Assembly (NCBI GenBank): GCA_040004745.1
Contig: JBDUAH010000001.1
Location: forward strand, 1 to 33,081
Direction of reading: 5' to 3'
DNA length: 33,081 bases
Source: Chthoniobacterales bacterium
GTDB lineage: Bacteria > Verrucomicrobiota > Verrucomicrobiia > Chthoniobacterales > UBA10450
Program-made: the position numbers and the translations under genes
Shown: positions 4,426 through 29,316 of the stretch, piece by piece
Layout of the letters: every line of letters starts with the position of its first letter
How positions within the stretch are numbered: position 1 is the first letter of the stretch
Notes under the pieces: model-generated
Database searches by the model: none
What the model saw: only the letters and a program-made list of their open reading frames with translations
Told to the model about the DNA's origin: nothing

Positions 4426-4449
4426 CCGCTCGGCGCTGGAGACTTACCG

Positions 4450-7626: not shown

Positions 7627-7641
7627 GGTGTGTGAGGAAAA

Positions 7642-11700: not shown

Positions 11701-11765
11701 ATCCCGGTTTCACCTACGATTCCACGGGACGCTTCGTCTACATCCGGTTGACGAAGAAATTCTAG
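8712..11765 (+). CDS. TonB-dependent outer-membrane receptor
   Basis: 1017 aa with a signal peptide ending AASAQE. Plug-domain motifs are present (ERVFVTGS, VALRGF, LILLDGRRV, IESIEILKDGASTAYGADAVAGVVNI). The C-terminus ends in an aromatic residue (YIRLTKKF). Confidence 0.85.
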   Translation: MSKPLLSVLVSPLASLAVSAGVFFVVIPAASAQEAVSSPRPAVNATANEQATAPPRDANGNLLPTAPAVATTERVFVTGSAIPTAAEVGPNPVINATRDLINKSGERNTEELLRNLPIANANGIPVSNNENGSNTAVGAATVALRGFDARATLILLDGRRVAPYPTSNSGIVFVDLNSIPQASIESIEILKDGASTAYGADAVAGVVNIKRYHEYRGVQSVVEYGNTTEKDSGAFQASLLFGIGNGTTNVAGSVNFYHRNSIFNRDRSYSAVPPFLSSNASPYNLQLTNAAVAEAGGTVIPTASGNQFAGAPSGSNGLSPASAYLYDTRRIRAFGGILPGYNFNEFSLSFPDTERYGAYVSFDHKIFGDQLVIYGDAMYQNVQTHNELAPPATGNFQTNGQITIAIPARVANAAGTTPFGGPTYAETGLSPGAFNPFNPFNQIISGGSRARLAEFGNRLFDDETDVFLSTVGLRGDKLFNSSWGYDTGFRYSEAKTTTTGTQVSSSLFNRILNQADPIFNPASPQYIGTTVAFNPFGDFRTPNPSNQASIEFARVHPKDSNTSKLATLDATVYTTELFNLPAGGIGLALGTQFRRESLREDPDRLNVIGDIAGNSAKAGARGGRKSYAFFGETSVPIFSSLNAISGFHALDFTAALRFEEFLNNNTNVLVPKFGVRWQPLDETLTLRATWGKGFREPSLEELYAAPRSDIQGSHDPMNGGAFEPETQTLIQSSANLQPEDSQTFSAGFVYSPKVVSGLTVSSDVWQIERTGVVQSAFLDAVLARELAGNLLPGERVERLPDGTISRIVVSNRNEAAQTANGIDFGIQYVKDTSIGTFTSLTQVSYLNSFEVQRVENGPTAQLAGQSTNLAASNEGYYRWRGDTRLDWTWHGFDLVATARFIDGFHEEDANLSGHDVAHRWLFDLQASYDFSGLAQRSAAAADYSKGSKEISGTTAEMPPSGIWGVLLDGSRVTVGCTNLFDKDPPDASGQGGNAVGYPGFTYDSTGRFVYIRLTKKF

Positions 11766-11823: not shown

Positions 11824-11896
11824 TGGAGGTATGGGGATTCGAACCCCAGGCCTCGTCATTGCGAACGACGCGCTCTACCAACTGAGCTATACCCCC
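11824..11896 (-). tRNA. tRNA-Ala (anticodon CGC)
   Basis: The reverse complement GGGGGTATAGCTCAGTTGGTAGAGCGCGTCGTTCGCAATGACGAGGCCTGGGGTTCGAATCCCCATACCTCCA folds as a 73-nt cloverleaf. Anticodon loop is TTCGCAA, giving CGC. The G3:U70 alanine identity pair is present. CCA is not encoded. Confidence 0.92.
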
Positions 11897-13395: not shown

Positions 13396-14817
13396 TTAAG
13401 TGTCTGCTGCCGCCTTCGCCGCCAGCAAATCTTCGACAAAGAGCGCGTATTCCCGCGCCCGAGTGTCTTCATCCGGTTGCCGCAAGAGCGACGATGGATG
13501 CACCGTGGCCAGGACACGCGGTGCAAGCTCCGAAGATAGGACGACCCCGCGTTCTTTTGTGACCCGGAAAGACGAACCGAAAATCGCCTGCGCGGCAGTC
13601 GAACCCAGACAAACAAGAAGCTTCGGTTTCAGGATCCGGAGCTCAGCTTCCAGCCACGGACGGCAGGCGGCGATTTCTCGCGAGTTCGGTTTTTGGTGAA
13701 TGCGCCGCTTCCCGCGCGGTTCCCATTTAAAATGCTTCACCGTGTTGGTGACGTAAACCTGTTCACGATCGATTCCCGTTTCCTTGAGGGCACGATCAAG
13801 AAGTTTGCCCGCCGGGCCCACGAACGGTTTCCCAGCCAGGTCTTCCTGATCCCCCGGCTGTTCACCGAGGAACATGATCGTCGCCCGTTTCGGGCCTTCG
13901 CCGAAAACCGTCTGCGTGCCACGCTGGTAAAGCGGACACGCAGTGCATGCTCGCGCCGCTGCCGCGATTTTATCCAGGCTCTGTGTGTCCGGCACCTGTG
14001 CGGGACGTGATTCCGCGTTGTCGGCTATTTTGTTCGCGCTCTTTTTGACCATGGCTTCCACCCTGCTGGGCGCCGCCCGCAGGAGGGAAGGAATCAGCAC
14101 CGCCTCCGGCAGGTTACGCCAATATTTCTTCGGCATCTCCGCCTGCATCGCGTGAACCTTCACGCGCGCGGGATTGAAAATATTCGCGTAGTACGTCAGC
14201 CAGAGGGACTCGGCTTCGTCTTCCGTAGGTGCTTGGGACCTGGTCACTCCAGCGGTGAAGGTCAACGCGTTTCCATCCCAATGCGCGCACCGTTCCGGCG
14301 TGAGGATCGACCAACACATGGACGCGAAACGGTCGACAAAGAACCGCGCGTTATGCTCAACAATGTGATGCGCCGGTTCGAACCAAGCGATGAAACACTT
14401 CGCATCCCCATGCTGCACTTCGCGGAAGCGCACGAAGGCGCGCATTTTGTGGATATCGTGGCGGACGGATTTCTGCAGGTCGAAAGCGCGCGCTACATCC
14501 GGGTCGACTGCGACTTCGAGCAATTTCGACTCGCCGTGCGTGAGCCGCCAGACCAGCCGGTAAAGCAGCGCCCAACGTCCATTGTCTGTATGCAGCGCGA
14601 CCAAGCGGGCGAGCGCGAGGAAGGTTTTGGGGACGTGAAAACGCGGCGGCTCCGATTTCGAAACATCCGGCAACGGTTCGTCGAAAATGTCGAGGGCTGG
14701 CTGGTCGGCGGATAGCTCCTGCCAGACGACCTCATTAGGCGCCAGGCTCCGATGCAAGGCGGAACGCGCCGCCCGTTGCCAATCTTCCAACGCGGGATGA
14801 AACGTTATTTGTTCCAC
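13396..14817 (-). CDS. udgX: DUF4130 (TIGR03915-like) domain fused to a UdgX-type family-4 uracil-DNA glycosylase/uracil-DNA-binding domain
   Basis: 473 aa. The C-terminal half has family-4 UDG motifs: GEGPKRATIMFLGEQPGDQEDLAGKPFVGPAG, the UdgX-specific loop GKRRIHQKP, and VHPSSLLR. The N-terminal half has HKMRAFVRFREV and WFEPAHHIVEHNARFFVDRF, typical of the DUF4130 'probable DNA metabolism protein'. It starts 3 bp after the radical SAM gene ends. Confidence 0.85.
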   Translation of the reverse strand: MEQITFHPALEDWQRAARSALHRSLAPNEVVWQELSADQPALDIFDEPLPDVSKSEPPRFHVPKTFLALARLVALHTDNGRWALLYRLVWRLTHGESKLLEVAVDPDVARAFDLQKSVRHDIHKMRAFVRFREVQHGDAKCFIAWFEPAHHIVEHNARFFVDRFASMCWSILTPERCAHWDGNALTFTAGVTRSQAPTEDEAESLWLTYYANIFNPARVKVHAMQAEMPKKYWRNLPEAVLIPSLLRAAPSRVEAMVKKSANKIADNAESRPAQVPDTQSLDKIAAAARACTACPLYQRGTQTVFGEGPKRATIMFLGEQPGDQEDLAGKPFVGPAGKLLDRALKETGIDREQVYVTNTVKHFKWEPRGKRRIHQKPNSREIAACRPWLEAELRILKPKLLVCLGSTAAQAIFGSSFRVTKERGVVLSSELAPRVLATVHPSSLLRQPDEDTRAREYALFVEDLLAAKAAADT

Positions 14818-14820
14818 CGC

Positions 14821-16080
14821 CTACAGCTGACCGGTCAACACGGAAGGCTCCGGCGCGAACAAATCGAGTTGCTGATCAGGCGCGGTGAAGCGTCGGCTGA
14901 AATCATCACGATCGAGTGCGAGCGCGGCGGAGTTGTAATCCGCTGTCACCACAAACGGCAGCACCTTTTTCACCGAAACATGCAACCGCGGGAGATCATC
15001 CAGACGCACCTTGTGCCACCGACGGACGCGCAGAATTTTATCGACTGATTTCGTTCCCAAGCCGGGCACGCGCAAAAGCATTTCGCGCGCGGCCTTGTTC
15101 AAATCGACTGGGAACAAATGTCGATGACGCAAGGCCCACGCAAGCTTCGGGTCGATCGCGAGATCGAGGTTTGGCGCGGCTTCAGTGGTCAGTTCCTGCG
15201 CCTTGAAACCGTAGAATCGCACCAGCCAGTCGGCCTGGTAAAGTCGATGCTCGCGCACGAGCGGCGGCGCGATCAACGGCAGCTTGCTCGAAGCATCGGG
15301 AATCGGACTAAAGGCGGAATAATAAACGCGCCGCAGTTTCTGATTCGCGTAGAGCGAAGTCGCCTGGTGCAGAATCGTCGCGTCTGGCGTGTCTGTTGCG
15401 CCGACAATCATCTGCGTGCTCTGACCCGCCGGTGCAAAGGTCGGCGCTTTCCGGCTTTCGCGCCGCGCCGCTTTCGCCTGCGTAATGCGATCGCGAATGC
15501 CGCTCATGGCCGCCTTCGTATTTGCGAAATTCTTTTGCGGGGCCAGTTCTTCGAGCGCGACCTCCGTCGGCAATTCGATGTTGATGCTGATGCGATCCGC
15601 CCAGCGACCGGCTTCTTCGATCAAGGCCGGCGCAGCCTCCGGGATTGTTTTCAAATGAATGTAACCGCGAAACTGATGCTCGGTGCGAAGCGTCCGCGCG
15701 ACCGCCACAACTTGCTCCATCGTGTAGTCGGGATTGCGAATGATTCCGGAACTCAAAAACAGTCCTTCGATGTAATTACGTCGGTAAAAATCGAGCGTCA
15801 GTTGCACCACTTCTTCCGGGGTGAAGCGCGCCCGTTGGACATCGCTGGAAACGCGATTGATGCAGTAGAGGCAATCATAGATGCAATAGTTCGTGAGCAG
15901 GATTTTGAGCAGCGAGACACAGCGCCCATCCGGCGTGTAGCTGTGGCAAATCCCGGAGCCCGTGGTGGAACCCAACCCGCCCGACGTGCGCGAGTTTCGC
16001 TTCGTCGTCCCGCTGCTCGCGCACGACGCGTCGTACTTGGCCGCGTCGGCGAGAATGGCGAGTTTGCGATCGAGTTCCAT
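14821..16080 (-). CDS. putative DNA modification/repair radical SAM protein (TIGR03916-like)
   Basis: 419 aa. The N-terminus is LAILADAAKYDASCASSG...GICHSYTPDGRCVSLLKILLTNYCIYDCLYCINR, which contains the CX3CX2C radical-SAM motif. A C-terminal HhH-like region is present (LLRVPGLGTKSVDKIL). GGAGA sits 5 nt upstream of the ATG. Confidence 0.85.
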   Translation of the reverse strand: MELDRKLAILADAAKYDASCASSGTTKRNSRTSGGLGSTTGSGICHSYTPDGRCVSLLKILLTNYCIYDCLYCINRVSSDVQRARFTPEEVVQLTLDFYRRNYIEGLFLSSGIIRNPDYTMEQVVAVARTLRTEHQFRGYIHLKTIPEAAPALIEEAGRWADRISINIELPTEVALEELAPQKNFANTKAAMSGIRDRITQAKAARRESRKAPTFAPAGQSTQMIVGATDTPDATILHQATSLYANQKLRRVYYSAFSPIPDASSKLPLIAPPLVREHRLYQADWLVRFYGFKAQELTTEAAPNLDLAIDPKLAWALRHRHLFPVDLNKAAREMLLRVPGLGTKSVDKILRVRRWHKVRLDDLPRLHVSVKKVLPFVVTADYNSAALALDRDDFSRRFTAPDQQLDLFAPEPSVLTGQL

Positions 16081-16137: not shown

Positions 16138-16905
16138 CTACCGGTGCCTGCGCAAAAATTCATCCGCCAAAGCGCGATAAGCAATCGCCCCACTTCCATT
16201 CGGCGCGTAATCGAAGATCGATTTCCCGAAGCTCGGCGCTTCACTCAAACGCACGGTGCGCGGGATCACCGTCTCATACGTTTGTTCGGCGAAATGCTCG
16301 CGCACTTCCGAGACCACCTGCGCGCTCAAGTTCGTTCGGCGATCGAACATCGTCATGACAATGCCCGCGATCCGCACGTGATCGTTCACGCCGGAGTTTC
16401 GAATTTGTTCCACCACGCGCACAATCTTGACCAAACCTTCGAGGGCAAAAAATTCGCACTGAATCGGCGTGAGCAATTCATCGGCGGCGGCCAGCGCGTT
16501 GGTCATCAGGATGCCGAGCGAGGGCGGGCAATCGAGCAACACGAAATCGAAAGTCGCATCAGCGCGCAATGGCACCAGCGTCTCGCGGAGCCGCGTGAGA
16601 TGATTATCCATCCGCGCGATTTCGATTTCCGCGCCGGCGAGATCGAGATCAGCGGGAATGATGAACATTCCGTCCAAACGCGTCGGCAAAATTTTGTCGG
16701 TGACGGAGACATCGCCGATCAGCGACTCGTAGAGGCTCTCGCCTTCCAATTCGCTGAGCCCGAAGGAACTAGTGGCGTTGCCCTGAGGGTCGAGATCGAT
16801 CAAGAGCACGCGCTGACCCAGGTCCGCGAGCGCGCAACCAAGATTGACGGCGGTGGTCGTCTTGCCGACGCCGCCTTTCTGATTTGCGATCGCGATGACT
16901 TTCAT
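16138..16905 (-). CDS. parA: ParA/Soj-family ATPase, orphan (no parB adjacent)
   Basis: MKVIAIANQKGGVGKTTTAVNL carries the deviant Walker A motif KGGxxGKT. LLIDLDPQGNAT and FVLLDCPPSLG are also present. I place the start at the internal ATG 16905, which forms an ATGA overlap with the stop of the upstream gene (16902-16904). The tracked ORF runs on to 16968. Confidence 0.9.
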   Translation of the reverse strand: MKVIAIANQKGGVGKTTTAVNLGCALADLGQRVLLIDLDPQGNATSSFGLSELEGESLYESLIGDVSVTDKILPTRLDGMFIIPADLDLAGAEIEIARMDNHLTRLRETLVPLRADATFDFVLLDCPPSLGILMTNALAAADELLTPIQCEFFALEGLVKIVRVVEQIRNSGVNDHVRIAGIVMTMFDRRTNLSAQVVSEVREHFAEQTYETVIPRTVRLSEAPSFGKSIFDYAPNGSGAIAYRALADEFLRRHR

Positions 16906-19319
16906 GAGCGCGGCACAATCAGCGTCCGCAGCTCGAACGTGCGTCGGCCATCGCTCTCCTGCCAGCACAGATGATCGGGATCGGGTAGCATTTCCGTCAC
17001 TTCCAACTCGCCGGCCTTGACCAGCCAGCGATGGAAGATCTCGAGCGAGAGATAACTTTCGAGATCGATGAAGACTGGTTTCGTGTCTTTATCGCGACCT
17101 TCCGCGCCGCTCCGGCGCAAAGTCGCCTCCGTCGGTCGCATGTAGACGTAGCGAGGCCAATCTTTCTGGGCCCGGAGCTCCTCGATCGCCAGAACTAGAT
17201 CACGCGAGATCCCCCTGTAATCGCCGGGGGGTAATTCCTCCACCGAGACCGTCCAGGAGCGGCGTTGCACAATCACCCGTCCGCAACGCAAGCGCGGCAT
17301 GTGCGGCGAGGCCCCGAAATGGAAAGGATGAAAGCCCAACGGGATGAGCCAGGCGCGCGCGAAAGAACCGAGATATTCTTTTGATCCACAGGTGCGTAGA
17401 CCGACATCGTTCGTGAAACGATCGACAAAAACTTCCACCTCCGCAGGCCGGACGGTGCGCCAGCGCGGGTTGGCGCGTTGTGGCGCCACGAAAGTCATCA
17501 ATTCCGGCAGCGAATCCATGTAACGCACCGTGGTATGCGCGGTGAAATCGGCCGCGAAAAATCCGAAGTGAACGGCGGGCCGTTGGCCGGCCGAGCTGGC
17601 GAAAGCACGCGACAGCGCGGGTTTGTCCGGACAGCTCCAGTACAAAGCATGATGCATGAGCGCGACGGGCGGATGCAGTTCGCTTACGACCCATTGGTAA
17701 TCACCGCGGTCAATCGCGGCAAACGATTCGGCTGAGAGCTGCAAATCGGCGGACGGGTAGGTGTACTCGTCGAATTTTTCATATTCGAACTTCCGTCGGA
17801 CAAAGGCGCAATCTTCCGCCGTCAGTTCCCACTCCGGCGCTTGGGCACGGCTGCTGATCATCTCGCGAAAGGCTTGCTTCACTTCCTGGAACGCGAGGTG
17901 CGCAAACACGACCATGCCCGGTCCGGTGAGCGACAACCGGTTCGCGGCGCAGTGTTCTAGGAAAGCCGGCAACAAGACCGCGCCGTCCTGAACCGGTGCC
18001 GAGGCCAGTAGCCCGCGCAGGCCAGCCGCCACCCGCGAAGCCACATACGCGTAGGTATCGCGCCAGAGGTCAAACCACGGGGCTGCGTCGCGCGCCAAGT
18101 CGTCGGTGATTTCTTCGCTGACAACGAAACTACAGTCGCGCGCACATTCTTCCGCGATCGGGTTAGCCGCCGCGTAGAGAGAACGCTGACCGCCAGTCTG
18201 GCGCGGCCCGAGATCGTCCAAGAGATTCCGCGCGGTCGCCATGAAGGTAGTCCGGGCGGAGTTTTCGGTCGTAGCCGCAAACTGCGCCGGAAGGGCCGCG
18301 AGCTGTTGCACACGCTCTTCCCAGCGCGCTCGCACCGGGCCGGGTCGCCATTGGGCGATGTCGCGAACCAGCGTTTCAAAAGCGAGCGGGTCCAGCGCGG
18401 GCACCTCGCACTCCCAAAGCAGAACCCTTTGGTCGGCTAATTCCTCGAGCAAGGAAGCGTTCTCGCCTAACGAATGCGCGGGAGTTTTCCCGTCGCAACG
18501 TCCCACGAGATCCAATTGTTCCGAAGTCAGGCGCACGGGTGGTTGAGAATCCGCCGGGACGAAGTTGTCGCCTTGCAGATTTCCGTTCGGATGCAGACGA
18601 GGTGCGAATTCCATCCGCGTTTCCGAATCCAGATTCAGCGCCACCGCCAGCGAATGCGCGGCCCAGCGTTCCAAAAAAGTAAAGCGCTCGAAGACGCCAG
18701 TCCCGGCAGTGAAGGAGACGCCCGAGGCTGAGTTCTCGATCGTACCCCAAGCCGACGGTCCAAAAGCGCCGAAGGTGTCGTTTTTTCCGCAGACCCTTTG
18801 CAGGTAAAGCAGCAAATGGCGCTCGCGCTCGCGGGTGCGCGCATTCCGTGGCGGCAAAGCGGCGCTGCCATCCAGGTCCGTGAGCCGCTCACGAAATTCG
18901 CCGGCGCCGAAGACGAGGTAAGCAGGAAGCACCGCGCCGCTGGAGGACGCGAGAGCGCGGCGCGCGGCTTCCAGTTCTCGCTGCAACGTCTGCGAGAACG
19001 TCATCTCCAGCGCAGAAATTTCCTCCGCCAGCGCAAGGAAACTTGTGATTTCGGGCGGCGTGGATTCGCTAATTCCGCTAGGCGCGATTCCCGTCTTCAG
19101 CGCAGCGCGGTAAGCGCGGGAGGCGTCGCCAGAGAGACGGCTTGCTTTCGAACCCAGCAGGCGCTCAGCCTCTTCAAGCGCCGCGCCCAGGCGAGATTGG
19201 CAATCGAGAGAATCACGCGCGCGCTGCGCTGTTTCCCGCGTCGCGAGTGCCTCCAAATGATCGAAGGGCACTCCCGCCATGCGAATCAAGAAAATCGGAG
19301 CGACGCGGTAACTCGACAC
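16902..19319 (-). CDS. stand-alone LanB-type protein (lantibiotic dehydratase N-terminal / glutamylation-like domain only)
   Basis: 805 aa. The N-terminus FLIRMAGVPFDHLEAL, then RERHLLLYLQRVCGKNDTFGAFGPSAWG (compare the R..TPFGLFAG motif of LanB enzymes), and the C-proximal PRLRCGRVIVQRRSW (compare the PR...G.VVL...W motif) resemble Lant_dehydr_N. The length leaves no room for the ~300-aa elimination domain. The start is uncertain: GTG at 19319, or the ATG for MAGVPFD at 19280. Confidence 0.6.
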   Translation of the reverse strand: MSSYRVAPIFLIRMAGVPFDHLEALATRETAQRARDSLDCQSRLGAALEEAERLLGSKASRLSGDASRAYRAALKTGIAPSGISESTPPEITSFLALAEEISALEMTFSQTLQRELEAARRALASSSGAVLPAYLVFGAGEFRERLTDLDGSAALPPRNARTRERERHLLLYLQRVCGKNDTFGAFGPSAWGTIENSASGVSFTAGTGVFERFTFLERWAAHSLAVALNLDSETRMEFAPRLHPNGNLQGDNFVPADSQPPVRLTSEQLDLVGRCDGKTPAHSLGENASLLEELADQRVLLWECEVPALDPLAFETLVRDIAQWRPGPVRARWEERVQQLAALPAQFAATTENSARTTFMATARNLLDDLGPRQTGGQRSLYAAANPIAEECARDCSFVVSEEITDDLARDAAPWFDLWRDTYAYVASRVAAGLRGLLASAPVQDGAVLLPAFLEHCAANRLSLTGPGMVVFAHLAFQEVKQAFREMISSRAQAPEWELTAEDCAFVRRKFEYEKFDEYTYPSADLQLSAESFAAIDRGDYQWVVSELHPPVALMHHALYWSCPDKPALSRAFASSAGQRPAVHFGFFAADFTAHTTVRYMDSLPELMTFVAPQRANPRWRTVRPAEVEVFVDRFTNDVGLRTCGSKEYLGSFARAWLIPLGFHPFHFGASPHMPRLRCGRVIVQRRSWTVSVEELPPGDYRGISRDLVLAIEELRAQKDWPRYVYMRPTEATLRRSGAEGRDKDTKPVFIDLESYLSLEIFHRWLVKAGELEVTEMLPDPDHLCWQESDGRRTFELRTLIVPRS

Positions 19320-19446
19320 ACGGAGACAGAAACTAAACGCGCGGGAAGTGACAACCTAAAAGCCCGGCACCACGCAGCGCGACAGCGCGGCCAAGTCCCC
19401 GCTCGGCATGGACATCGCGCATACGCGACACAGATTGCGAGCGCGA

Positions 19447-20595
19447 TTAAGCTTCCGCCAACGGAAGCCGAATCGTGAAGATCGTTCCCAAATCGGGCGT
19501 GCTGTCGACCTTGATCGAACCGCGGTGATCTTCCACCACTTTCTTCGTGATGTAGAGCCCGAGACCGGTGCCGCTTCGGCCCTGCCGCGTGGTGAAATAG
19601 GGTTCGAAGATTTTTGGCATCTGCGCGGGGGTGATCCCACAGCCGGTATCCCGGATGCAGACATCCACATAGAAATCCTGCGAGGTGCATTGGACCGTGA
19701 CGGAGCCTTTGTTCTCGGCCGAAGCCTGGACGGCATTGACGATCACGTTCTGAATGGCGCGCTTAATTTGCACTGCGTCCCCCAAAACCAGTCCGCCCTC
19801 ACAGGTCTCGCTCACAATCTCCACTCCACTTTGCGTGGCGATCGACTCCACACCTTTTAAAACTTCGTGGACGATCTGGACTACATTCACCGGTCGATGC
19901 GCGGCCGCTTCCTGGCTGCCGTAGCTTTGCCACATCGTGAGCAGTTCCCGGCAAAGCCGCACATTTTGCTCGATGATGTTCAGCTCCTTGGCCGAGGTCG
20001 TGTTTTGGACGCCGCCTTCTTTTTCGGACTTCTCGAGTTTCTTCGCCAAAAGCTGCACGTAGCCCCAGACGATCGTGAGAGGATTGCCCAAGTCGTGCAC
20101 GAATTCCGCGGAGGCTTGCCCGAGAGACGCAAGCCGCTCTTTCTGCGCTAGCTCTTTCATGAGCCGAATATTTAGCTCGCGGATCTCTTCCGCCGCGCCC
20201 TCGCTGGAACGGTGCACGCGCGTGCGTTCGACATTCCGGCTGATCACCTCGCGCATCTCGACCGCGTCGAATGGCTTGCTGATGTAATCGTTCGCGCCTA
20301 AGCGGAGCGCTTCCTGCGCCGTCTCGAGCGCGCCAAAACCGGTTAACATGATGACCGCCACATGCGGGTCGATCTCGCGAATGCGACGCAGCCCATCGAT
20401 GCCATTGGTGCCAGGCATCCGGATGTCGCTCACCACCGCATCAGGTCGTTTCTCTCGCAGCAGGCGCAATCCAGCCTCCACCGTATTGGCGGTGTGCACC
20501 TGGTAATTGGGCTTCAGAAGCATCCGCAAACTTTCTCGCGGCCCCATCTCGTCATCGATCACGAGTATATGAGGAAGTTCGGGAGAGGCGGTCAT
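19447..20595 (-). CDS. hybrid response-regulator receiver / histidine kinase (REC-HisKA-HATPase)
   Basis: REC motifs: ILVIDDE, AVVSDIRMPG, IMLTG, SKPF. H-box: SAEFVHDLGNPL. N box: NVIVNAVQA. G1: IRDTGCGI. G2: GTGLGL. The start is placed at ATG 20595 (MTASPELPHILVIDDE) rather than at the ORF limit 20784, because the REC domain begins there and a sigma54-like promoter lies just upstream. Confidence 0.85.
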   Translation of the reverse strand: MTASPELPHILVIDDEMGPRESLRMLLKPNYQVHTANTVEAGLRLLREKRPDAVVSDIRMPGTNGIDGLRRIREIDPHVAVIMLTGFGALETAQEALRLGANDYISKPFDAVEMREVISRNVERTRVHRSSEGAAEEIRELNIRLMKELAQKERLASLGQASAEFVHDLGNPLTIVWGYVQLLAKKLEKSEKEGGVQNTTSAKELNIIEQNVRLCRELLTMWQSYGSQEAAAHRPVNVVQIVHEVLKGVESIATQSGVEIVSETCEGGLVLGDAVQIKRAIQNVIVNAVQASAENKGSVTVQCTSQDFYVDVCIRDTGCGITPAQMPKIFEPYFTTRQGRSGTGLGLYITKKVVEDHRGSIKVDSTPDLGTIFTIRLPLAEA

Positions 20596-20616
20596 TGGTT
20601 CGAAGTCGCAATGTAA

Positions 20617-20631
20617 GCTAGCCGCGTGCCG
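20617..20631 (-). promoter_or_regulatory. sigma54-like -24/-12 promoter candidate upstream of the REC-kinase gene
   Basis: The minus strand reads cGGCACGcggcTaGCtt against the consensus TGGCACG-N4-TTGCW. GG and GC have the canonical spacing. The GC lies 21 nt upstream of ATG 20595. Confidence 0.35.
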
Positions 20632-20837
20632 TCGAAAAATCTCATAATGTCTCGGGGAAAAACGCCCGCAGCCCCGATGCTCCACTAAAGAATCGGGCGT
20701 CGACAAGGTACAAGTTGTGAATAAGCCCGAAATATGCTGAATAAGGACCGATTTGATTATGCGTGGCCGAGCCACCACATTCACTGGAACAGTTAGAAAT
20801 CACACGCGTTCACGTACTTCCGCACGATTCCTAGAGA

Positions 20838-22082
20838 ATGCCTAAACGAAATCGAGTTGTCGTCACCGGCATGGGAATTTTGGCGCCGAACGGGACAGGG
20901 CTCGAAGCGTTTTGGGAATCGCTTCTGGCTGGGCGGAGCGGGATTGGGCCGATTACGCTTTTCGACACTACCGGGTACAACAGCCGGATCGCAGGCGAGG
21001 TGAAAAGCTTTGACCCGCTGGATTATATCGAGGCCGAACTCAAACCGAAACGGATGGCGCGACACACTCAATTTGCGTTCGCAGCCACCATGATGGCACT
21101 CCAGGATGCGGGACTGGATCTCGATGACCTCTGCCTCCCGAGTCCAACGCCCGTCGTCATGGGAGTTAGCATGAACGCAATGGATGTCGTTGAAAAAGCC
21201 TTTCATGCTGTCCAAAATATCAACCCGAACCGGGCCGCTCCGTTTACGTCCAGCGCCTCGATTCCCCAAGCGGCCGCGAACGTCATCGCGGATAGACTAG
21301 GCCACTGCGCGAACGCTGCCACCGTTTCATCGGCGTGCCCATCAGGCCTGGACGCGATCGCCGATGCCGCGGCGATGATTCGCAGAGGTGATGCCGAATT
21401 GGCAATCGCTGGTGGGACTGATGCGCCAATTACGCCACTGGTTATCGCCAGTTTCATCGCGAGTGGGCTGAGCTCTCAACGCAACGATGAACCGGAGAAA
21501 GCTAGTCGGCCGTTCGACCTCAGCCGCGATAGTGGTGTGATTTCCGAAGGAGCAGGGGTGATGGTGCTCGAGAATTTGGAGCGGGCGCAAGCTCGAGGCG
21601 CGCGAATCTATATGGAAATCGCAGGCTATGGAAAACAGCGAGACCGTGATCACTCTCGGCCTGCGTCTGGACTTGAAGACTCCATGGCTTTGGCCCTGGC
21701 CAACGCCGGCTGGACCACACACAGCGTGGATTATATCTCAGCGTACGGGCCGGGACACCCGGTCCTCGACACCGCGGAGGCCGCCGTCATCGCCCGGGTC
21801 TTCAAAGAGCGCGCACGCTGTATTCCCGTGAATTCGATCAAAGGTGTTACCGGCAACGCCTTGGCGGCCGGCGGCCCTTTCCAGTTAATCGCTTCCGCTT
21901 TGTGCATGCGGGAACAAACGATCCCACCGACCGCAAATTGTGACGAATTGGATCCATCTTGCGACTTGGATATCGTCCGGCTAAAGCCGCGTCGAGCGGT
22001 CTTGAATAACATTTTGATTAATGTCCGCGGACTTGGAGGAAGCGCGAGCACGATGCTGGTGAGCCGCGTTCAAAACGAGTGA
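20838..22082 (+). CDS. FabF/KAS-II-like beta-ketoacyl synthase with a non-canonical active site (Cys retained, both His apparently replaced)
   Basis: 414 aa. RVVVTGMGILAPNG is the KS N-terminus. The active-site Cys lies in VSSACPSGLDAI. YISAYGPGHPVLD stands where FabF has NAHGTSTP, and NSIKGVTGNALAAGG where FabF has KSMTGHLLGAAG. The stop overlaps the next gene's GTG (GTGA at 22079-22082). Confidence 0.85.
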   Translation: MPKRNRVVVTGMGILAPNGTGLEAFWESLLAGRSGIGPITLFDTTGYNSRIAGEVKSFDPLDYIEAELKPKRMARHTQFAFAATMMALQDAGLDLDDLCLPSPTPVVMGVSMNAMDVVEKAFHAVQNINPNRAAPFTSSASIPQAAANVIADRLGHCANAATVSSACPSGLDAIADAAAMIRRGDAELAIAGGTDAPITPLVIASFIASGLSSQRNDEPEKASRPFDLSRDSGVISEGAGVMVLENLERAQARGARIYMEIAGYGKQRDRDHSRPASGLEDSMALALANAGWTTHSVDYISAYGPGHPVLDTAEAAVIARVFKERARCIPVNSIKGVTGNALAAGGPFQLIASALCMREQTIPPTANCDELDPSCDLDIVRLKPRRAVLNNILINVRGLGGSASTMLVSRVQNE

Positions 22083-24604
22083 ACAATTCGGCTCTCTCCA
22101 CCCTCGCGGCGATTGTCATTCAACTCGCCTTGGCTCTGGCCGTTTTCCAGGCCAATCCACGCCGAAAATCCAATCAGTGTTTTCTCCTTCTCTCGGGGGT
22201 GATCGCGGTTTGGTTGGGAAGCTTGTTTCAAACTCTCACCACCACGAACGCTGAAGTCGGCGCCTTTTACATTAGGCACGCCTCCGCGGCCGGGGCTCTC
22301 ACCCTGGTTTTCTTCAATCTGCTCCGCCTGACCATCACCCGGCCCGCCGACCGATGGAGCAGCCTGCTGAGACAATCGTGGATTTGGCTGGTGGCAGGAT
22401 TCGCTGTGGGACTGCTCTGCCAGACCGGGCTCTTTCTGAAGACGGCCGAGTTTAGTGCGCCAGGTTCTTCCACAAATCTCACGCTTCATCCCGTCTACGG
22501 GAAAGGGCTGCTTCTCTACATTCTTTATTTTTTCGTTGCGGGGTTCGCAATTTTGTTCAGCTACCTCCGGGCCGTAAGAAACGCAACCGCGCTAGAGCGC
22601 TCTGAACTTTCTTTCATCCTGATCGGCGCGGGCGCCACGCTCGCCACGGTTGGCTTGGCGGCAATTGCTGGCTTTTTCGTCGACAGAGCCCGCTTGCTGT
22701 GGTTCGCGCCGTTTCGCATTGTCGTTTTCAGCATCGTCATTGCATTCGGCATCACGACCCAAAAGATCATGGAGGTGGGCTTCGTTCTCCGCCGGACACT
22801 GTCTTACGCCCTGCTTACAGCGTACCTCCTTGCTCTTTACACAATAGTCTGGTGGCTAGGCTACGCCGCCTTCGCGCATCTCTTGGGGAATCTGGGACAA
22901 TCCATTGCTCACGTCACGGCAGCGATCATTATCGCTTTTGCGATGGCGCCGGCACGCGGAGTATCGCAATCGCTGGCTGACCGCCTGTTCGGTGGGACGC
23001 GCAGCCTGGATTTCCGCGCCACTGTGAGCAAAGCCGCGGAAATTCTGAAATCTGTGAGCACGCTTCCAGAACTTTTGGCCCGTTTCGCCACCACGATTGG
23101 AGAGGCGGTCGGGACCGATCGCATCGTGATATTGCTCCGCGAAAGGCACATTTTCCAACAATCCTACCCGTCATCTGCCGACAGTACCGATGATCGGAGC
23201 AGACTGAGCGAAGACGATCCGCTCCTAGTCTTCTTGACCAAGGAACAACAGCCTCTCGTCTTGGAGGGCTTGTACCGCGCGCGTTCGACGCCGGAGGTCG
23301 AAGAACTGATCGCCAGGATGATCGCGTTAAAAGCCGTGGTCGTTACAGGAATTTTTTCCCGACAGCACTTAGTTGGGGTGATGGTTCTAGGTCCACGTCG
23401 CTCGCGCCGGATTTATGGCAGTGTGGAGCAAAATGCCCTGCAAATTCTATGCGGACAGCTCGCAGTCGCGATTGATAATGCACGCCTCTTCACCGAGGTC
23501 CAAAACGCCAAGCTTTACAATGAAACTCTCCTCGAAAATCTGACGAGTGGCGTGATTGCGGTCGGCGCGGACGAACGTGTCACCGTGTTCAACAACGAGG
23601 CGGGGCAAATCACCGGGCTGGATCCACGCGAGGTCATCGATCGCTCGATCGAAAATCTTCCGGACTCGATCCGTGACGGTCTGCGCGATACTTTGCATTC
23701 GGTCGAACGACGGGAGAACAACGAGATCGCGCTGCAATCTGATCAGGAGGCGGTGGTGGCCCGGGCCAGTAGTTCCGTTTTCCATGGCCAGGAAGGCGAA
23801 ATGTTGGGAGCGCTGATGGTGTTGACCGATATCACTGCCCTCAAGCGTCTCGAGCAGCAGATTCGACGGAGCGATCGATTAGCCAGCCTGGGAACGCTCT
23901 CCGCGGGTATGGCGCACGAAATCAAAAACCCGCTCGTCTCGATCAAAACCTTCGCGCAACTGCTCCCCGAGCGTTATCAGGATTCCGATTTTCGCGAGAC
24001 CTTTTCGAATTTAATCGGCCACGAGATCGACCGCATCGACTCGCTCGTGAACCAGCTCCTGCGTTTCGCGCGCCCCGCGAAGCCACTCTTGAAGCCGATG
24101 CACGTCCACGATGTCCTGGAAAAGTCGCTCATGCTCGTCGGGCACCGGCTTTACCAAAAAGAAATTAAATTATCGAGGTCGTGGAACGCCGAAGTTGATA
24201 CAATCCGCGCGGATGCGGATCAGCTCGAACAGGTCTTCCTCAATTTCTTTCTCAATGCCATGGACGCGATGAAACTCGGCGGCGAGTTAATTGTGGCGAC
24301 AGAGATTCGGTCGGCCGAGGACTGGATCGCTTCTGTCACCTCCAATGGTGATGGTGCGCGGGAAATCCTGTGCGTCACGGTACAGGATAATGGCGAAGGA
24401 ATTAAGAATGAGGACATCGCTCACGTTTTCGATCCTTTCTTCACCACGAAAGATTACGGGACGGGACTCGGGCTTTCTGTCGTCCACGGCATCATCCAGG
24501 AACATGGAGGCGAGATCGAAGTGGAGAGCGAACTCGCCAATGGCACTTCATTTCACATTTTGCTCCCCCTCGTCCGCTTTCAGGAAGAGGTGGCCGCCGC
24601 ATGA
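22079..24604 (+). CDS. membrane sensor histidine kinase (multi-TM N-terminal domain, then GAF-PAS-HisKA-HATPase)
   Basis: 841 aa. About 300 aa of repeated hydrophobic helices come first. GAF region: ...VGVMVLGPRRSRRIYGSVEQNALQILCGQLAVAIDNARLF. PAS region: LLENLTSGVIAVGADERVTVFNNEAGQITG. H-box: GMAHEIKNPLVSIKTFAQLLPERY. N box: FLNAMDAM. G boxes: VQDNGEGI and GTGLGLSV. Confidence 0.85.
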   Translation: MNNSALSTLAAIVIQLALALAVFQANPRRKSNQCFLLLSGVIAVWLGSLFQTLTTTNAEVGAFYIRHASAAGALTLVFFNLLRLTITRPADRWSSLLRQSWIWLVAGFAVGLLCQTGLFLKTAEFSAPGSSTNLTLHPVYGKGLLLYILYFFVAGFAILFSYLRAVRNATALERSELSFILIGAGATLATVGLAAIAGFFVDRARLLWFAPFRIVVFSIVIAFGITTQKIMEVGFVLRRTLSYALLTAYLLALYTIVWWLGYAAFAHLLGNLGQSIAHVTAAIIIAFAMAPARGVSQSLADRLFGGTRSLDFRATVSKAAEILKSVSTLPELLARFATTIGEAVGTDRIVILLRERHIFQQSYPSSADSTDDRSRLSEDDPLLVFLTKEQQPLVLEGLYRARSTPEVEELIARMIALKAVVVTGIFSRQHLVGVMVLGPRRSRRIYGSVEQNALQILCGQLAVAIDNARLFTEVQNAKLYNETLLENLTSGVIAVGADERVTVFNNEAGQITGLDPREVIDRSIENLPDSIRDGLRDTLHSVERRENNEIALQSDQEAVVARASSSVFHGQEGEMLGALMVLTDITALKRLEQQIRRSDRLASLGTLSAGMAHEIKNPLVSIKTFAQLLPERYQDSDFRETFSNLIGHEIDRIDSLVNQLLRFARPAKPLLKPMHVHDVLEKSLMLVGHRLYQKEIKLSRSWNAEVDTIRADADQLEQVFLNFFLNAMDAMKLGGELIVATEIRSAEDWIASVTSNGDGAREILCVTVQDNGEGIKNEDIAHVFDPFFTTKDYGTGLGLSVVHGIIQEHGGEIEVESELANGTSFHILLPLVRFQEEVAAA

Positions 24605-26604
24605 TGACGCCCTCCCCGGTTTGCGTTCTTTACACACAGGACGCCGACCTTAACCGTCGGCTGAAGGCATTCCTGCGCGCGATGGCGCAGGTCCGCCACG
24701 TCGCAGACGCGGACCGCTTGGAATCCGTCCTGCAACAGGTGGGACCCAGCGTGCTCTTGCTGGATTTGCGGGCCAAAGAGGGCCGTGATCTGCTCGATCA
24801 GATACACAAGGAGCGGCCCGAAGTTCTCATCATCGCATTGGGCACGCCGCGTTCGGAACCATTGCGCGAAGCGGAAGATTCAGGCGTTTACGCGGCGGAA
24901 GATTTGGTACTCGATCGGCGCCATTTCCAGGCACTGGTTGCCCGCGCTTTCGATCACTTGCGTCTGATGCAGGAGAATCGCGAACTGCGCGAAACCTCAA
25001 CCGCCACCCTCGCTCTGGCGGCTCTGCGTCCACACAACGGATCGGCCGAAGGTTCGCCCACGGCCACACCGCTCTCCCGCTTTCCACGCGTTTTCCGTCG
25101 CTTCGATAATGTGGAGACGCTGCTCGCGCGGGTGGTCGAGGGGTTAGCCGACACCGCGGGCGTTTCCCGTGTAGGAATTTTCTCCCGCATTCGACAAAGC
25201 GACCGTTACCGTTTGCGCGCCGGTCTCCGTTGCCTCCCGGAAACTTACGACGCGGAATACATGGAGCGCGATCCGCTTGTGCGTTGGTTCGAATTAAACG
25301 CTCACCTGATCTGCCGTGCGCACCTGACAGAAACTCCAGTTCAAGCACAGCGCCTTCTCTTGCGCCGCGCCCTCGACGCTTTTGGCGCGGAAGTCATCGT
25401 GCCGTTGCACGCCAACGGTCGCATCATCGGCTGGCTCTTTTTCGGGCATCGGCTCACCGGCCAGCGCTTCGATTATCTCGATCTGGAGAATCTGATGATC
25501 CTGGCGGAGCAGGTCTCCACCGTCCTGGAAAATGCTTGCCTCCACGAACAACTCACGCTGGAAAAGACGCTGGCCGAGACGCTCCTCAAATCCATTCCTC
25601 CAGGCATCGTGGCGACAGACGAGGATGCCATTGTGCGCTGGTTTAACCCCACAGCCGCAAAAGTCCTCGGGCTGAAAGCAGCAGATGTCTTGAATCAGCC
25701 GGTCGAGGCCGCTGGCGGACGCCTCGCGGCTTTTTTGCGCGACGCGCTGGCCACGAACGGAAATCTCCCGACCCGGCAATGGGTCGACGGCAATACTCAA
25801 CGATCGCTCACCATCGAAGCGCGCCGCGTCTTGAACGGCAACACTCCCTTCGGCGCCGTAGCCGTCGTGCAGGATTTGACCGCGCAGGAGGACTTGCGCC
25901 AAAAGCAGGATCTCTTCGAGCGCGCCGCCTTTTGGACCGATCTCGCGGCCAGCATGTCGCACGAAATCCGGAACCCGCTGGTCGCGATCAAGACGTTTGC
26001 GCAACTCCTGCCCGAGCGTTTCGATGACGCGGATTTCCGCGACGAATTCAATCACATCGTGGTCGAGGAAATCGACCGCCTGGACCAGATCATCACTCAG
26101 ATCAACAACTTCGCGCACCCTTCAGAATTGGTCATGAAGTCGTTCGATCTGCGCGATTCCGTTCAGAATGTGCTGAAAATCGCGCGGGAACGGAGCGACC
26201 CCAATGGCACGACCGTGGAGGTCAATTTCCCGAAGGATCTCCCGCACATTTTGGGAGACGAGAGCGCACTTACGGAAGCGTTCGCGCATCTGGTCTCGAA
26301 TGCGACGGAGGCCACGGATGGACGACCTAAAGCCAAGGTTACGCTCGAAGCCAAATCGATTGGTGAAGGCGAAGAGAGCCGCGCGGTGGTCGTGACGGTG
26401 CAAGATAATGGCAAAGGCATCGACCCCGAGTTGAAGGACAAGATTTTCTCGCCCTTCTGCACCACCAAACCGCGCGGCATGGGGCTCGGGTTGCCGATCG
26501 TGAAACGGACGGTTTTCGATCACAACGGCCGGCTGGACATTGACTCGAATCCGCGCGGCACCTCCGTCAGCGTGATGCTGCCTGCGAGCACGAACGGCGA
26601 TTAA
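24601..26604 (+). CDS. cytoplasmic sensor histidine kinase (REC-like N-terminus, then GAF-PAS-HisKA-HATPase), paralogue of the preceding kinase
   Basis: 667 aa. The start forms an ATGA overlap with the upstream stop (24601-24604). The N-terminal ~120 aa are receiver-like (VLLLDLR, LIIALGT). GAF: IIGWLFFGHRLTGQRF. PAS: LLKSIPPGIVATDEDAIVRWFNPTAAKVLG. H-box: SMSHEIRNPLVAIKTFAQLLPERF. G boxes: VQDNGKGI and GMGLGLPI. Confidence 0.85.
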   Translation: MMTPSPVCVLYTQDADLNRRLKAFLRAMAQVRHVADADRLESVLQQVGPSVLLLDLRAKEGRDLLDQIHKERPEVLIIALGTPRSEPLREAEDSGVYAAEDLVLDRRHFQALVARAFDHLRLMQENRELRETSTATLALAALRPHNGSAEGSPTATPLSRFPRVFRRFDNVETLLARVVEGLADTAGVSRVGIFSRIRQSDRYRLRAGLRCLPETYDAEYMERDPLVRWFELNAHLICRAHLTETPVQAQRLLLRRALDAFGAEVIVPLHANGRIIGWLFFGHRLTGQRFDYLDLENLMILAEQVSTVLENACLHEQLTLEKTLAETLLKSIPPGIVATDEDAIVRWFNPTAAKVLGLKAADVLNQPVEAAGGRLAAFLRDALATNGNLPTRQWVDGNTQRSLTIEARRVLNGNTPFGAVAVVQDLTAQEDLRQKQDLFERAAFWTDLAASMSHEIRNPLVAIKTFAQLLPERFDDADFRDEFNHIVVEEIDRLDQIITQINNFAHPSELVMKSFDLRDSVQNVLKIARERSDPNGTTVEVNFPKDLPHILGDESALTEAFAHLVSNATEATDGRPKAKVTLEAKSIGEGEESRAVVVTVQDNGKGIDPELKDKIFSPFCTTKPRGMGLGLPIVKRTVFDHNGRLDIDSNPRGTSVSVMLPASTNGD

Positions 26605-26611
26605 GCTGGAT

Positions 26612-26646
26612 TTGCTGATTGCTGATTTCCGATTTCTGATTTCTGA
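26612..26646. repeat. five tandem heptamers (TTGCTGA TTGCTGA TTTCCGA TTTCTGA TTTCTGA)
   Basis: Read directly from the sequence. It begins 8 nt after the kinase stop codon and ends 72 nt upstream of the fba ATG. Confidence 0.8.
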
Positions 26647-26718
26647 TTAGAAGCAGAGGCCCGGGCCGAGATGGTGCCGGACCCACCAAACCAAAAATCA
26701 TCAATCAGGAATTCCCCC

Positions 26719-27666
26719 ATGATCGTCACCACTGCCCAGCTCTACAAAGTCGCCTACAAGAAATTCGCCGTCGGCGCTTACAACATCAACAACCTCGAGC
26801 AGACCATGGGTCTCTTCCGTGGCTGCATCGAAAGCAAAGCGCCCTTCATCATTCAGCTTTCAAAAGGCGCGCGGAATTACACCGACAAGCGGATGCTCGA
26901 GGCGATCATCCGCACCGCCGAAGAGATTTTTCCGGAAGCGATTTACGCCGTGCATCTCGATCACGGCGACGAGGCGACCTGCTACGATTGCATCGACTCG
27001 GGCTTCTACAGCTCGGTCATGATCGATGCCAGCCACGAGTCGTTTGACGAGAACATCGCCATTACTCGCCGCGTCGTGGATCGCGCACACGCGAAAGGAA
27101 TCAGCGTCGAGGCCGAACTCGGGATGCTCGGCGGCGTGGAAGAAGACATCAAAGTGGATGAAGGCCACGCTTGCCTGACGAATCCCGACGAAGCGGGTGA
27201 ATTCGTCGAACGCTCGGGTTGCGACTCGCTCGCCGCGGCCATCGGCACCAGTCACGGCGCCTACAAATTCAAAGGGCAGCAATCCCTTCGCTTCGATGTG
27301 ATCGAAGCGATCTCCCAGAAAGTTCCCGGAATGCCGATCGTGATGCACGGCAGTTCCAGCGTGCCCGTGGAAGAAGTAACACGCATCAATGCAGCCGGCG
27401 GAACTCTCGACCCGAGCGCGCGCGGCGTGGCGGAAGATGAGTATCTTCCCGCGGCCAAACTTGGCGTGACCAAAGTCAATATCGATACCGATGGTCGCCT
27501 CGTCTGGACGCGCGTGCATCGCGAGTTCTTTCGCGATAAGCCAGCCGAATTCGATTTCCGGCCGCCGGGCATTCTGTTCATGCAGGCCTACGCGGATTTC
27601 ATCGCGCACAAGAACGAGAAGCTAGGTTCAGCAGGACAACTCGAAGCCGTTCGCGCGACGTTGTAA
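26719..27666 (+). CDS. fba: class II fructose-1,6-bisphosphate aldolase
   Basis: Motifs: YKKFAVGAYNINNLEQ, PFIIQLSKGA, AVHLDHGD, SVMIDASH, VEAELG, GTSHGAYKF, VMHGSSSVP. The start is placed at ATG 26719, with AGGA 9-12 nt upstream, rather than at the ORF limit 26671. Confidence 0.9.
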   Translation: MIVTTAQLYKVAYKKFAVGAYNINNLEQTMGLFRGCIESKAPFIIQLSKGARNYTDKRMLEAIIRTAEEIFPEAIYAVHLDHGDEATCYDCIDSGFYSSVMIDASHESFDENIAITRRVVDRAHAKGISVEAELGMLGGVEEDIKVDEGHACLTNPDEAGEFVERSGCDSLAAAIGTSHGAYKFKGQQSLRFDVIEAISQKVPGMPIVMHGSSSVPVEEVTRINAAGGTLDPSARGVAEDEYLPAAKLGVTKVNIDTDGRLVWTRVHREFFRDKPAEFDFRPPGILFMQAYADFIAHKNEKLGSAGQLEAVRATL

Positions 27667-28746: not shown

Positions 28747-28824
28747 CGTACCGCCCACGCGAGGATCGCATGGCCGAGCCCCGCGATGAACTAAATCTTC
28801 GTGGAGGAAAAGCCTCGCGGGAAG

Positions 28825-28853
28825 TTGGCAAGGTTAGTGCTTATACTCATTAT
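28825..28853 (+). promoter_or_regulatory. promoter candidate for the receiver gene (readable as sigma54 -24/-12 or as sigma70 -35/-10)
   Basis: TGGCA (28826-28830), 7 nt, then TGCT (28838-28841) has the GG-N10-GC spacing of the consensus TGGCACG-N4-TTGC. Alternatively: TTGGCA (28825-28830), 17 nt, CATTAT (28848-28853). The ATG is at 28867. Confidence 0.3.
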
Positions 28854-28866
28854 AGAAATTATAAGC

Positions 28867-29316
28867 ATGAAAGTCCTCACCCGCGCTTCCGCTGACTTCC
28901 TGATCATTGACGACGATCCTTCGATCGCAAAGTTTTTGGTCACCTATCTCAAACAAAAGGGTCACTCTTGCGAAGCCCTGACCGAAGGCTTTCAGACGGC
29001 CCATTGGCTTGAACACAACCGCTGCGATGTCGTCGTCGTGGATCTCAATATGCCCAAAGTGGACGGTATCTCCCTCATCTCCTTCATCCGCGAAATGAGT
29101 CAGACCTTGCCCATTATCGTCTTCACCGGCGTCGGCTACGACGAAACCCGAATGCACTCTGCGCTCCGCGCTGGCGCGAATGGTTACGTCAGCAAAAATC
29201 TTCCTATCGAGCAGCTCTACTGCGTCCTCTCCCGGGTCCTCGCTACCTGCCAGCAACGCGCCCGGCGCGATGCCCTCGGAGCGCGCGACAACCACTACCT
29301 CGCGGGAGCAGCCTAA
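28867..29316 (+). CDS. single-domain CheY-like response regulator receiver
   Basis: REC motifs: FLIIDDD, VVVVDLNMPKVDG, IIVFTG, VSKNLP. No output domain. The start is placed at ATG 28867 (MKVLTRAS), not at the ORF limit 28801. Confidence 0.85.
   Translation: MKVLTRASADFLIIDDDPSIAKFLVTYLKQKGHSCEALTEGFQTAHWLEHNRCDVVVVDLNMPKVDGISLISFIREMSQTLPIIVFTGVGYDETRMHSALRAGANGYVSKNLPIEQLYCVLSRVLATCQQRARRDALGARDNHYLAGAA

Follow-up and report, generated by a model that had tools for sequence, protein, structure and literature searches.

A PEARL-like LanB-type Protein Encoded in a Divergent Six-gene Block Conserved in Chthoniobacterales

Introduction

Why should a LanB-type protein be encoded beside a ParA ATPase, a ketosynthase (KS) and three histidine kinases? 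The question is raised by a stretch of 33,081 nucleotides from a Chthoniobacterales bacterium (assembly GCA_040004745.1, contig JBDUAH010000001.1), referred to throughout as the window, in which an open reading frame (ORF) map and domain scans place these six genes in two divergent units. Three lie on the minus strand (a hybrid kinase, the 805-amino acid LanB-type protein and ParA) and three on the plus strand (the KS and two further kinases). An earlier note on the same DNA had placed all six genes, their three stop/start overlaps (ATGA, GTGA and ATGA) and two gaps of 127 and 242 bp correctly, as judged from the ORF map, the domain scans and the junction sequences. It had also proposed that the pairings are not chance neighbors, had not recognized the combination as a described system and had described the LanB-type protein as stand-alone. 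The six-gene combination was likewise absent from the literature searched.

Two classes of enzyme share the LanB fold. The Glu-tRNA-dependent dehydratases need an elimination domain and use no ATP; PEARLs (peptide aminoacyl-tRNA ligases, or LanBC) use ATP to phosphorylate a C-terminal carboxylate, to which they then ligate an amino acid from aminoacyl-tRNA. By definition, PEARLs are without an elimination domain or LanC, they are not found together with PF14028, and they have additional ATP-grasp-like residues (PMC11962472, PMC11212132, PMC11117183).

Results

Fold and Active-site Residues of the LanB-type Protein

The gene for the LanB-type protein (16902-19319, minus strand) begins with GTG, and its 805-amino acid product was matched in Pfam only by Lant_dehydr_N (PF04738, 3.2e-19) and by no NCBIfam model. 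An AlphaFold2 model (pLDDT 81.5) submitted to Foldseek matched, over its full length, TbtB (E 1e-19, TM-score 0.61-0.64) and GodF, and also the N-terminal domains of MibB, MadB and NisB, with E values of 1e-19 to 1e-13 for TbtB, GodF, MibB and NisB overall. The fold is therefore shared with split LanBs (TbtB and GodF) and full LanBs (NisB, MibB and MadB) alike (TM-score 0.5-0.64). Sequence-profile searches of the PDB likewise returned TbtB (2e-27) and GodF (9e-15).

The residues that set PEARLs apart have been described. D/E542 and R803 of TglB are kept in PEARLs, with Tyr and Leu found there in the split LanB TbtB (PMC11117183), and ATP binding by BhaB7 involves D558, E575, H577, R715, F755, K763, E813 and R815 (PMC12945691). 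The window protein contains R13, D525, E547-L-H549, R686, Y726, K747 and E796-L-R798, all of which are invariant in 36 orthologues; among 40 relatives with identities down to 22%, all are again invariant except Y726 (Tyr or Phe) and H549 (conserved in at least 90%). R686 and Y726 align directly with the adenine-binding Arg and aromatic residue of TbtB (R743 and F783), and a C-terminal Glu is probably also common to the two proteins. Unlike TbtB, the window protein has the PEARL-type Asp and, as far as its predicted placement goes, the Arg, and the ATP-grasp-like Asp and Glu-x-His of PEARLs (positions 542 and 564 in TglB) are both present (D525, E547 and H549). Spacings agree with those published, with 40 residues from the Arg to the aromatic residue and 22 from the Asp to the Glu (as in TglB). 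The local motifs of BhaB7, TSPDLMIA at 555-562 and GEIH at 574-577 in its authors' AlphaFold3 model, have as counterparts TYPSADLQLSA and SELH in the window protein, the family consensus of the latter being GELH. The invariant E796-L-R798, the putative counterpart of TglB E801/R803, is spaced as expected relative to the positions aligned with TbtB, its placement following from spacing and published description only.

A PqqD-like element of the kind that recognizes precursors of peptides made by the ribosome and modified after translation (RiPPs; a RiPP recognition element, RRE) was located at approximately residues 246-305. A profile of this segment matched PqqD (5SXY, E 0.0014), and of 21 family members 5 matched Pfam PqqD there; scanning the segment directly with Pfam gave no match. 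An RRE is typical of PEARLs, in which it may be vestigial.

The family shares a conserved N terminus, YRVAPIFLIR, and the GTG at 19319 is therefore taken as the true start. The database model of the ligase, 792 amino acids long, starts at Met14 and so drops an N terminus (window 19281-19319, minus strand) that includes Arg13, the likely equivalent of the catalytic Arg10 of TglB; approximately one-third of the homologue gene models show the same truncation.

The earlier note had remarked that no elimination domain, LanC or obvious precursor accompanies this protein, and each of these class I lanthipeptide hallmarks was indeed missing from the material searched. No PF14028 domain was found in the protein itself, in the window genes scanned with Pfam hidden Markov models (HMMs) or in the gene tables of two related loci (L001 and L002), and no LanC or other cyclase was found among the scanned window genes. 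A precursor was sought by clustering stop-to-stop ORFs of at least 18 amino acids from the first 82 loci in four intergenic regions, namely those between the hybrid kinase and the LanB-type gene, between the KS and the hybrid kinase, downstream of ParA and between the last kinase and the fructose-bisphosphate (FBP) aldolase gene that follows it; only nucleotide-level blocks and gene ends were recovered.

The fold and the pattern of active-site residues together lead us to class the protein as a probable PEARL rather than as an orphaned lantibiotic dehydratase, its residues for ATP-dependent phosphorylation being, as mapped, those of an already described class. Its likeness to the known PEARLs (TglB, BhaB1/4/5/7, AmmB1-4 and SnaE) extends to a length of ∼800 amino acids, the glutamylation-type LanB fold, the RRE-like insert and the conserved Asp, Glu-x-His, Arg, aromatic residue and Lys, and probably to the C-terminal Glu-x-Arg. 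On this assignment the missing elimination domain and LanC are expected and not anomalous. The protein is hereafter called the ligase, a name that presumes the chemistry its conserved residues suggest.

Conservation of the Gene Order

Scanning a single genome for each GTDB species yielded 217 stretches with a relative of the ligase, from which 80 loci were kept. All 80 are titled Chthoniobacterales, Verrucomicrobiota/Verrucomicrobiae or Spartobacteria, with ligase identities of 53-71%, and the homologues of the 805-amino acid protein that carry a source name come from Chthoniobacterales or unclassified Verrucomicrobiota. A metagenome scan with outgroup alignment returned ∼79 of 80 loci from the same clade and serves as replication only; a homologue search with P0122 again led mostly to the Chthoniobacterales clade.

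The window proteins were mapped by tblastn onto all loci, which gave 159 of this type, 80 of them from different GTDB species, and synteny was counted only in loci with enough flanking sequence. ParA lies no more than 300 bp downstream of the ligase in 126 of 131 loci (and within 3 kb in 4 more), and the hybrid kinase no more than 600 bp upstream of it in 111 of 114. The divergent KS was present in 94 of 95 loci, the seven-transmembrane (7TM) kinase in all 74 and the GAF-PAS kinase in 62 of 65. The same six-gene order is thus found in essentially every Chthoniobacterales locus with sufficient flank, which bears out the proposal that these pairings did not arise by chance adjacency; far from never being neighbors in related genomes, an outcome for which the earlier note had allowed, the genes recur as a block across the 159 loci, all from one order.

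Stop/start overlaps had been offered as a sign of coupling. They are common, being observed between ligase and ParA (4 nt) in 96 of 149 loci, between KS and kinase (4 or 1 nt) in 54 of 89 and between the two plus-strand kinases (7 or 4 nt) in 61 of 71, but they are not universal. A 4-nt overlap is by itself ordinary operon architecture, and it is the conservation that goes beyond chance.

The flank beyond ParA is variable, a radical-SAM gene being found there in only 23 of 87 related loci. On one side of the block, an FBP aldolase gene, LpxD and a gene for a receiver (REC)-only protein are likewise syntenic.

Relatives of the Ligase outside Chthoniobacterales

A library of representatives at 50% identity contained 1819 relatives of the ligase. 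Those with 35-45% identity to it lie on contigs of 66-76% GC, compared with 59% for the window, and were never found beside ParA, KS or kinases. Instead, PEARL-like paralogues occur in tandem arrays of two to four at loci L083, L085, L086 and L088, and a PEARL-like gene adjoins a methyltransferase and homoaconitase/homocitrate-synthase-like genes at L087. At L095 (868-11340) such a gene is accompanied by an MbnB/TglH-family enzyme, an AMP-binding ligase, a methyltransferase and a MATE exporter. The array at L083 (1-9469) has four PEARL-like paralogues in a row. L095 and L083 both come from organisms of ∼70% GC, and their gene clusters are pearlin-like. Tandem arrays and proximity to a TglH-family enzyme are contexts known for PEARLs, which suggests that the Chthoniobacterales ligase derived from such clusters and was then fixed in a new setting outside a biosynthetic gene cluster (BGC).

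The Ketosynthase

The KS gene (20838-22082, plus strand) encodes a FabF-derived paralogue that carries both KS Pfam domains and the thiolase fold. Alignment to Thermus thermophilus FabF (1J3N, 292 bits) showed that the active-site Cys and Lys335 are kept, that the first His is replaced by Tyr (SAYGPGH compared with NAHGTST in FabF) and that the second is replaced by Asn (VTGNAL compared with MIGHLL), in agreement with its earlier description as a His-less ketosynthase. C167, Y303, K335 and N340 are invariant in 121 orthologues, and the protein therefore has Cys167-Tyr303-Asn340 in place of the Cys-His-His triad. Only orthologues of at least 70% identity were returned by a homologue search. Its score against TIGR03150 (368.7 bits) falls below the FabF equivalog cut-off of 493.75, so that HMM searches assigned neither the KS nor the ligase, which is without an NCBIfam match, to a housekeeping family, an assignment that the earlier note had named as one that would refute its reading.

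Loss of the HGTG-motif histidine marks non-elongating KS0 domains (PMC7327777). The window KS shares this loss, and chain elongation is therefore unlikely, although acyl binding or transfer would still be possible. It differs from FabF and KS0 domains in having Tyr and Asn in place of both histidines, in standing alone with no acyl carrier protein (ACP), acyltransferase or fab genes nearby and in being translationally coupled to the 7TM kinase, the stop codon of KS and the GTG start of the kinase sharing the junction GAGTGA. No ACP was found either in the window or among the fetched loci, consistent with the earlier remark that the KS has no fatty acid or polyketide synthase partner.

The Histidine Kinases and the Tail of the 7TM Kinase

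The hybrid kinase at the head of the minus-strand unit (19447-20595) has a REC-HisKA-HATPase arrangement without a sensor domain. On the plus strand, the KS is followed by a HisKA_7TM-GAF-PAS histidine kinase (22079-24604) and, across the junction GCATGATG, by a cytoplasmic GAF-PAS histidine kinase (24601-26604). The last of these is a GAF-PAS kinase as reported earlier, but its REC-like N terminus is weakly supported, the Response_reg match (E = 0.0033, 18 bits) lying below the Pfam cut-off. No DNA-binding response regulator was found in the window, as had been stated before; a REC-only response regulator that is syntenic in several loci is encoded at 28801-29316 (plus strand) and is a candidate terminal acceptor for the kinases.

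The 7TM kinase ends in a conserved tail, ...LPLVRFQEEVAAA (codons 24566-24601), with the form ...RFxxEVAAA (E-V-[A/V]-A-A) and a terminal Ala in 52 of 52 orthologues. Its codons show synonymous third-position variation, and the conservation exceeds what the overlapping Shine-Dalgarno sequence and ATG of the next gene would need. Among the locus proteins checked, this was the only conserved C terminus besides the catalytic end of the ligase itself; the C terminus of ParA was considered as a ligase substrate and rejected because its tail is not conserved. The PEARL substrate BhaA ends in ...EDKVAPLALA, and a 12-residue C-terminal tag suffices for PEARL action on whole proteins (PMC11962472). The cytoplasmic kinase tail (24566-24604, plus strand) resembles the C termini of PEARL substrates, with their acidic helix and Ala-rich end, and also ssrA-type degrons. 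Its role as a candidate substrate of the ligase, or as a degron, is speculative.

ParA and Its Flank

The parA gene (16138-16905, minus strand) encodes a Soj-type ATPase (Pfam AAA_31/CbiA) whose ATG overlaps the ligase stop codon in the sequence TCATGAAAG. Its best PDB matches were the ParA-family protein 8RAY (1e-73), T. thermophilus Soj (1WCV, 5.6e-67) and also Helicobacter pylori Soj. The deviant Walker A motif (KGGVGKT) of Soj-type ATPases is present, and the Arg of a DRRTNL motif is presumably the equivalent of the DNA-binding Arg of Soj. In these features ParA resembles the chromosomal Soj/ParA proteins of ParABS systems, from which it differs in lying downstream of, and overlapping, a PEARL-like gene and in its missing partners. 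The earlier observation that no ParB accompanies it in the window was extended by a motif scan (box II, GERRxRA), which was negative in the window and in 168 fetched loci (∼8-10 kb around), and no parS site was found in the window within 3 mismatches.

At three loci an O-methyltransferase gene lies between ligase and ParA (L065 10519-11631, L077 10340-11620 and L082 10716-11864), its identity being confirmed by PF00891 and PF08100 for L065 only, suggested by visible similarity of the ORF in L077 and assumed from position and size in L082. Tight coupling of ligase and ParA is therefore dispensable, and an insert of this natural-product type hints at a methylatable product. Locus L077 also contains an IS630-type DDE_3 transposase, and part of the ligase C terminus is duplicated there next to ParA.

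In the window, the stretch that starts 57 bp beyond ParA (13396-16080, minus strand) encodes a radical-SAM TIGR03916 protein and a fused TIGR03915/UdgX-family uracil-DNA-binding protein, which together are known as a putative DNA-repair pair. Farther on is a tRNA-Ala(CGC) gene (11824-11896, minus strand). In 19 of 55 loci (including L002, L014, L023, L027, L032 and L033) this tRNA lies downstream of ParA, with differing distance and orientation; tRNA-Gly(CCC) occurs in 8 others, and no further tRNA species was seen. These recurring genes probably reflect ancestral synteny or a rearrangement hotspot. The region 1647-11765, partly syntenic with L002, encodes a MacB/FtsX permease, a 1058-amino acid protein with BNR/sortilin repeats and a TonB-dependent receptor, genes that are typical of soil Verrucomicrobiota.

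Intergenic Regions and Neighboring Genes

The 127-bp gap between the hybrid kinase and the ligase contains, directly 5′ of the ligase GTG, a conserved block of ∼40 nt with the sequence TTGTCAC (19320-19358, minus strand; alignment of 77 loci). An internal promoter, from which the mRNA could be near-leaderless, is one possible role of this block, and translation control is another; a scan for sigma-70 promoters and terminators returned matches at or below shuffled expectation and was uninformative for it. The divergent region of 242 bp between the KS and the hybrid kinase (20596-20837) also contains conserved nucleotide blocks and has a median length of ∼250 bp across loci.

Beyond the last kinase, a 7-bp tandem repeat (GATTTCT, 5.6 copies, 26609-26648) precedes the gene for the class II FBP aldolase (26671-27666, plus strand), and GATTT-rich repeats of like kind were observed in this gap in ∼15 of 47 loci. 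The aldolase is probably a syntenic neighbor only and not functionally part of the block. An Rfam scan at gathering thresholds detected one tRNA only. The PADLOC anti-phage models gave only trivial P-loop and REC matches, and a defense system was rejected in the absence of any meaningful match.

Discussion

The account that we favor, with slightly more confidence than doubt when all of its parts are taken together, is that a gene block inherited vertically and found specifically in the order Chthoniobacterales, consisting of two divergent units, contains a PEARL-class enzyme rather than a lantibiotic dehydratase. Fold, active-site residue pattern and order-wide gene order were observed directly, and the ligation chemistry is what the conserved residues predict. 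The minus-strand unit would comprise the hybrid kinase, then the ligase, probably expressed from its own control element, and then the overlapping Soj-type ParA. The ligase would phosphorylate a carboxylate with ATP and capture the amino group of an aminoacyl-tRNA, the outcome being the amide-linked addition of one amino acid; a peptide or protein encoded away from the ligase gene most likely provides the carboxylate as its C terminus. The KS, which keeps the acyl-accepting Cys without the two histidines for decarboxylative condensation, would serve in acyl binding, acyl transfer or sensing and not in elongation, and is coupled to the 7TM kinase and the soluble GAF-PAS kinase. The three kinases and the nearby REC-only protein may form a phosphorelay that has no transcriptional output in the window. 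A shared pathway, or a single system, for the ligase, ParA, KS and kinases is no more than plausible. A signaling-controlled module that modifies peptides or lipids, which the earlier note offered as one possibility, is likewise conjectural: no substrate peptide, ACP or tailoring gene came to light in the regions and genes searched.

Several observations weigh against this account. No scaffold peptide was recovered from the four intergenic regions of the 82 loci, and no protease or tailoring enzyme is encoded among the scanned window genes, so that the usual logic of a PEARL pathway is absent. Spacing and published description, and not a direct alignment with a characterized PEARL, are what place E796 and R798. 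Coupling of ligase and ParA is dispensable where the O-methyltransferase gene is inserted (L065, L077 and L082), and the C-Y-N ketosynthase could have an unforeseen catalytic activity. All of the synteny evidence comes from a single order in which the FBP aldolase is equally syntenic; conservation of gene order may therefore partly reflect shared ancestry, and adjacency that is conserved inside one order and takes in the aldolase is no proof of shared function.

These last points are the strength of a different explanation, less probable in our estimate yet a serious possibility, in which the six genes have no common function (the PEARL would be domesticated, the Soj chromosomal, the FabF paralogue degenerate and the kinases of the ordinary two-component type), their synteny stems from a young order or a stable region and their overlaps are generic operon compaction. 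Besides the shared synteny of the aldolase, LpxD and the REC-only gene, it accounts for the finding that outside relatives of the ligase never adjoin ParA, KS or kinases and for the tolerance of insertions both between ligase and ParA and between the hybrid kinase and ligase. A merely stable region is harder to reconcile with the frequent rearrangement of the flank past ParA, where the radical-SAM gene is so seldom kept, and with a block that is intact in >95% of loci at ligase identities of only 53-71% and that retains its stop/start overlaps in approximately two-thirds of them.

A cryptic pearlin-like natural-product pathway seems unlikely. Here the PEARL would extend a scaffold peptide or small carboxylate encoded or made elsewhere to give a signal or metabolite. 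Distal enzymes would tailor this product, joined in some lineages by the inserted O-methyltransferase, with the KS supplying an acyl group and the kinases regulating production. The closest outside relatives do lie in BGC-like contexts, methyltransferases recur beside PEARL-like genes (L087 and L095) as well as within three of the present loci, and SnaE provides an example of a PEARL that acts on a non-ribosomal carboxylate and has no precursor gene (PMC11212132). However, the conserved block contains no scaffold gene, protease, exporter, ACP or additional tailoring gene, its searched intergenic regions yielded no conserved small ORF, and the locus is therefore unlike a pearlin or RiPP cluster. 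It further differs from the loci of known PEARLs in that the ligase gene overlaps that of a Soj-type ParA, with kinases and housekeeping genes flanking it, and a single context conserved in at least 80 species amid housekeeping genes is unlike a typical BGC.

ATP-grasp C-terminal ligases such as RimK and tubulin tyrosine ligase activate a protein C terminus as an acyl phosphate and then add an amino acid; they use free amino acids, not aminoacyl-tRNA, and offer a functional analogy only for the window ligase. PEARLs have been proposed to descend from ATP-grasp enzymes (PMC11117183). A related idea, to which we attach little credence, is that the ligase is a housekeeping protein-modifying enzyme that adds an amino acid from aminoacyl-tRNA to the C terminus of a cellular protein, the tail of the 7TM kinase being the best candidate at the locus. 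If true, bacteria would have in such an enzyme a tRNA-dependent counterpart of tubulin tyrosination or RimK modification, and it would couple charged-tRNA status to signaling and, via the co-translated Soj, to chromosome segregation.

Least probable is a split class I dehydratase that performs TbtB-like Glu-tRNA-dependent glutamylation, both its elimination partner and its substrate coming from genes elsewhere in the genome. TbtB and GodF, two split LanBs, are the best PDB matches by structure and by sequence, but the PDB contains no PEARL structure to compete with them. The window protein keeps the Asp and, as mapped, the Arg that are Tyr and Leu in split LanBs, together with the E-x-H motif, and no PF14028 protein was found in the scanned window genes or the L001 and L002 gene tables.

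For annotation, the consequence of classing the protein as a PEARL is that the label "lantibiotic dehydratase" given by automated pipelines is misleading for these ligase genes, and many database calls of them lose the N terminus with the conserved Arg13. The FabF paralogue with its C-Y-N active site, coupled to a 7TM kinase, constitutes a second uncharacterized family that merits biochemical study. The PEARL class itself is already known; what is new, relative to the literature searched, is its order-wide occurrence in a non-BGC context, next to both a Soj-type ParA and the operon of the C-Y-N ketosynthase and its kinases. To our knowledge, characterized PEARLs all belong to secondary-metabolite clusters, in which they act on dedicated scaffold peptides or on products of nonribosomal peptide synthetases. 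With a PEARL-class enzyme fixed in a single context throughout an abundant order of soil bacteria, tRNA-dependent, ribosome-independent amide ligation would reach beyond natural-product clusters.

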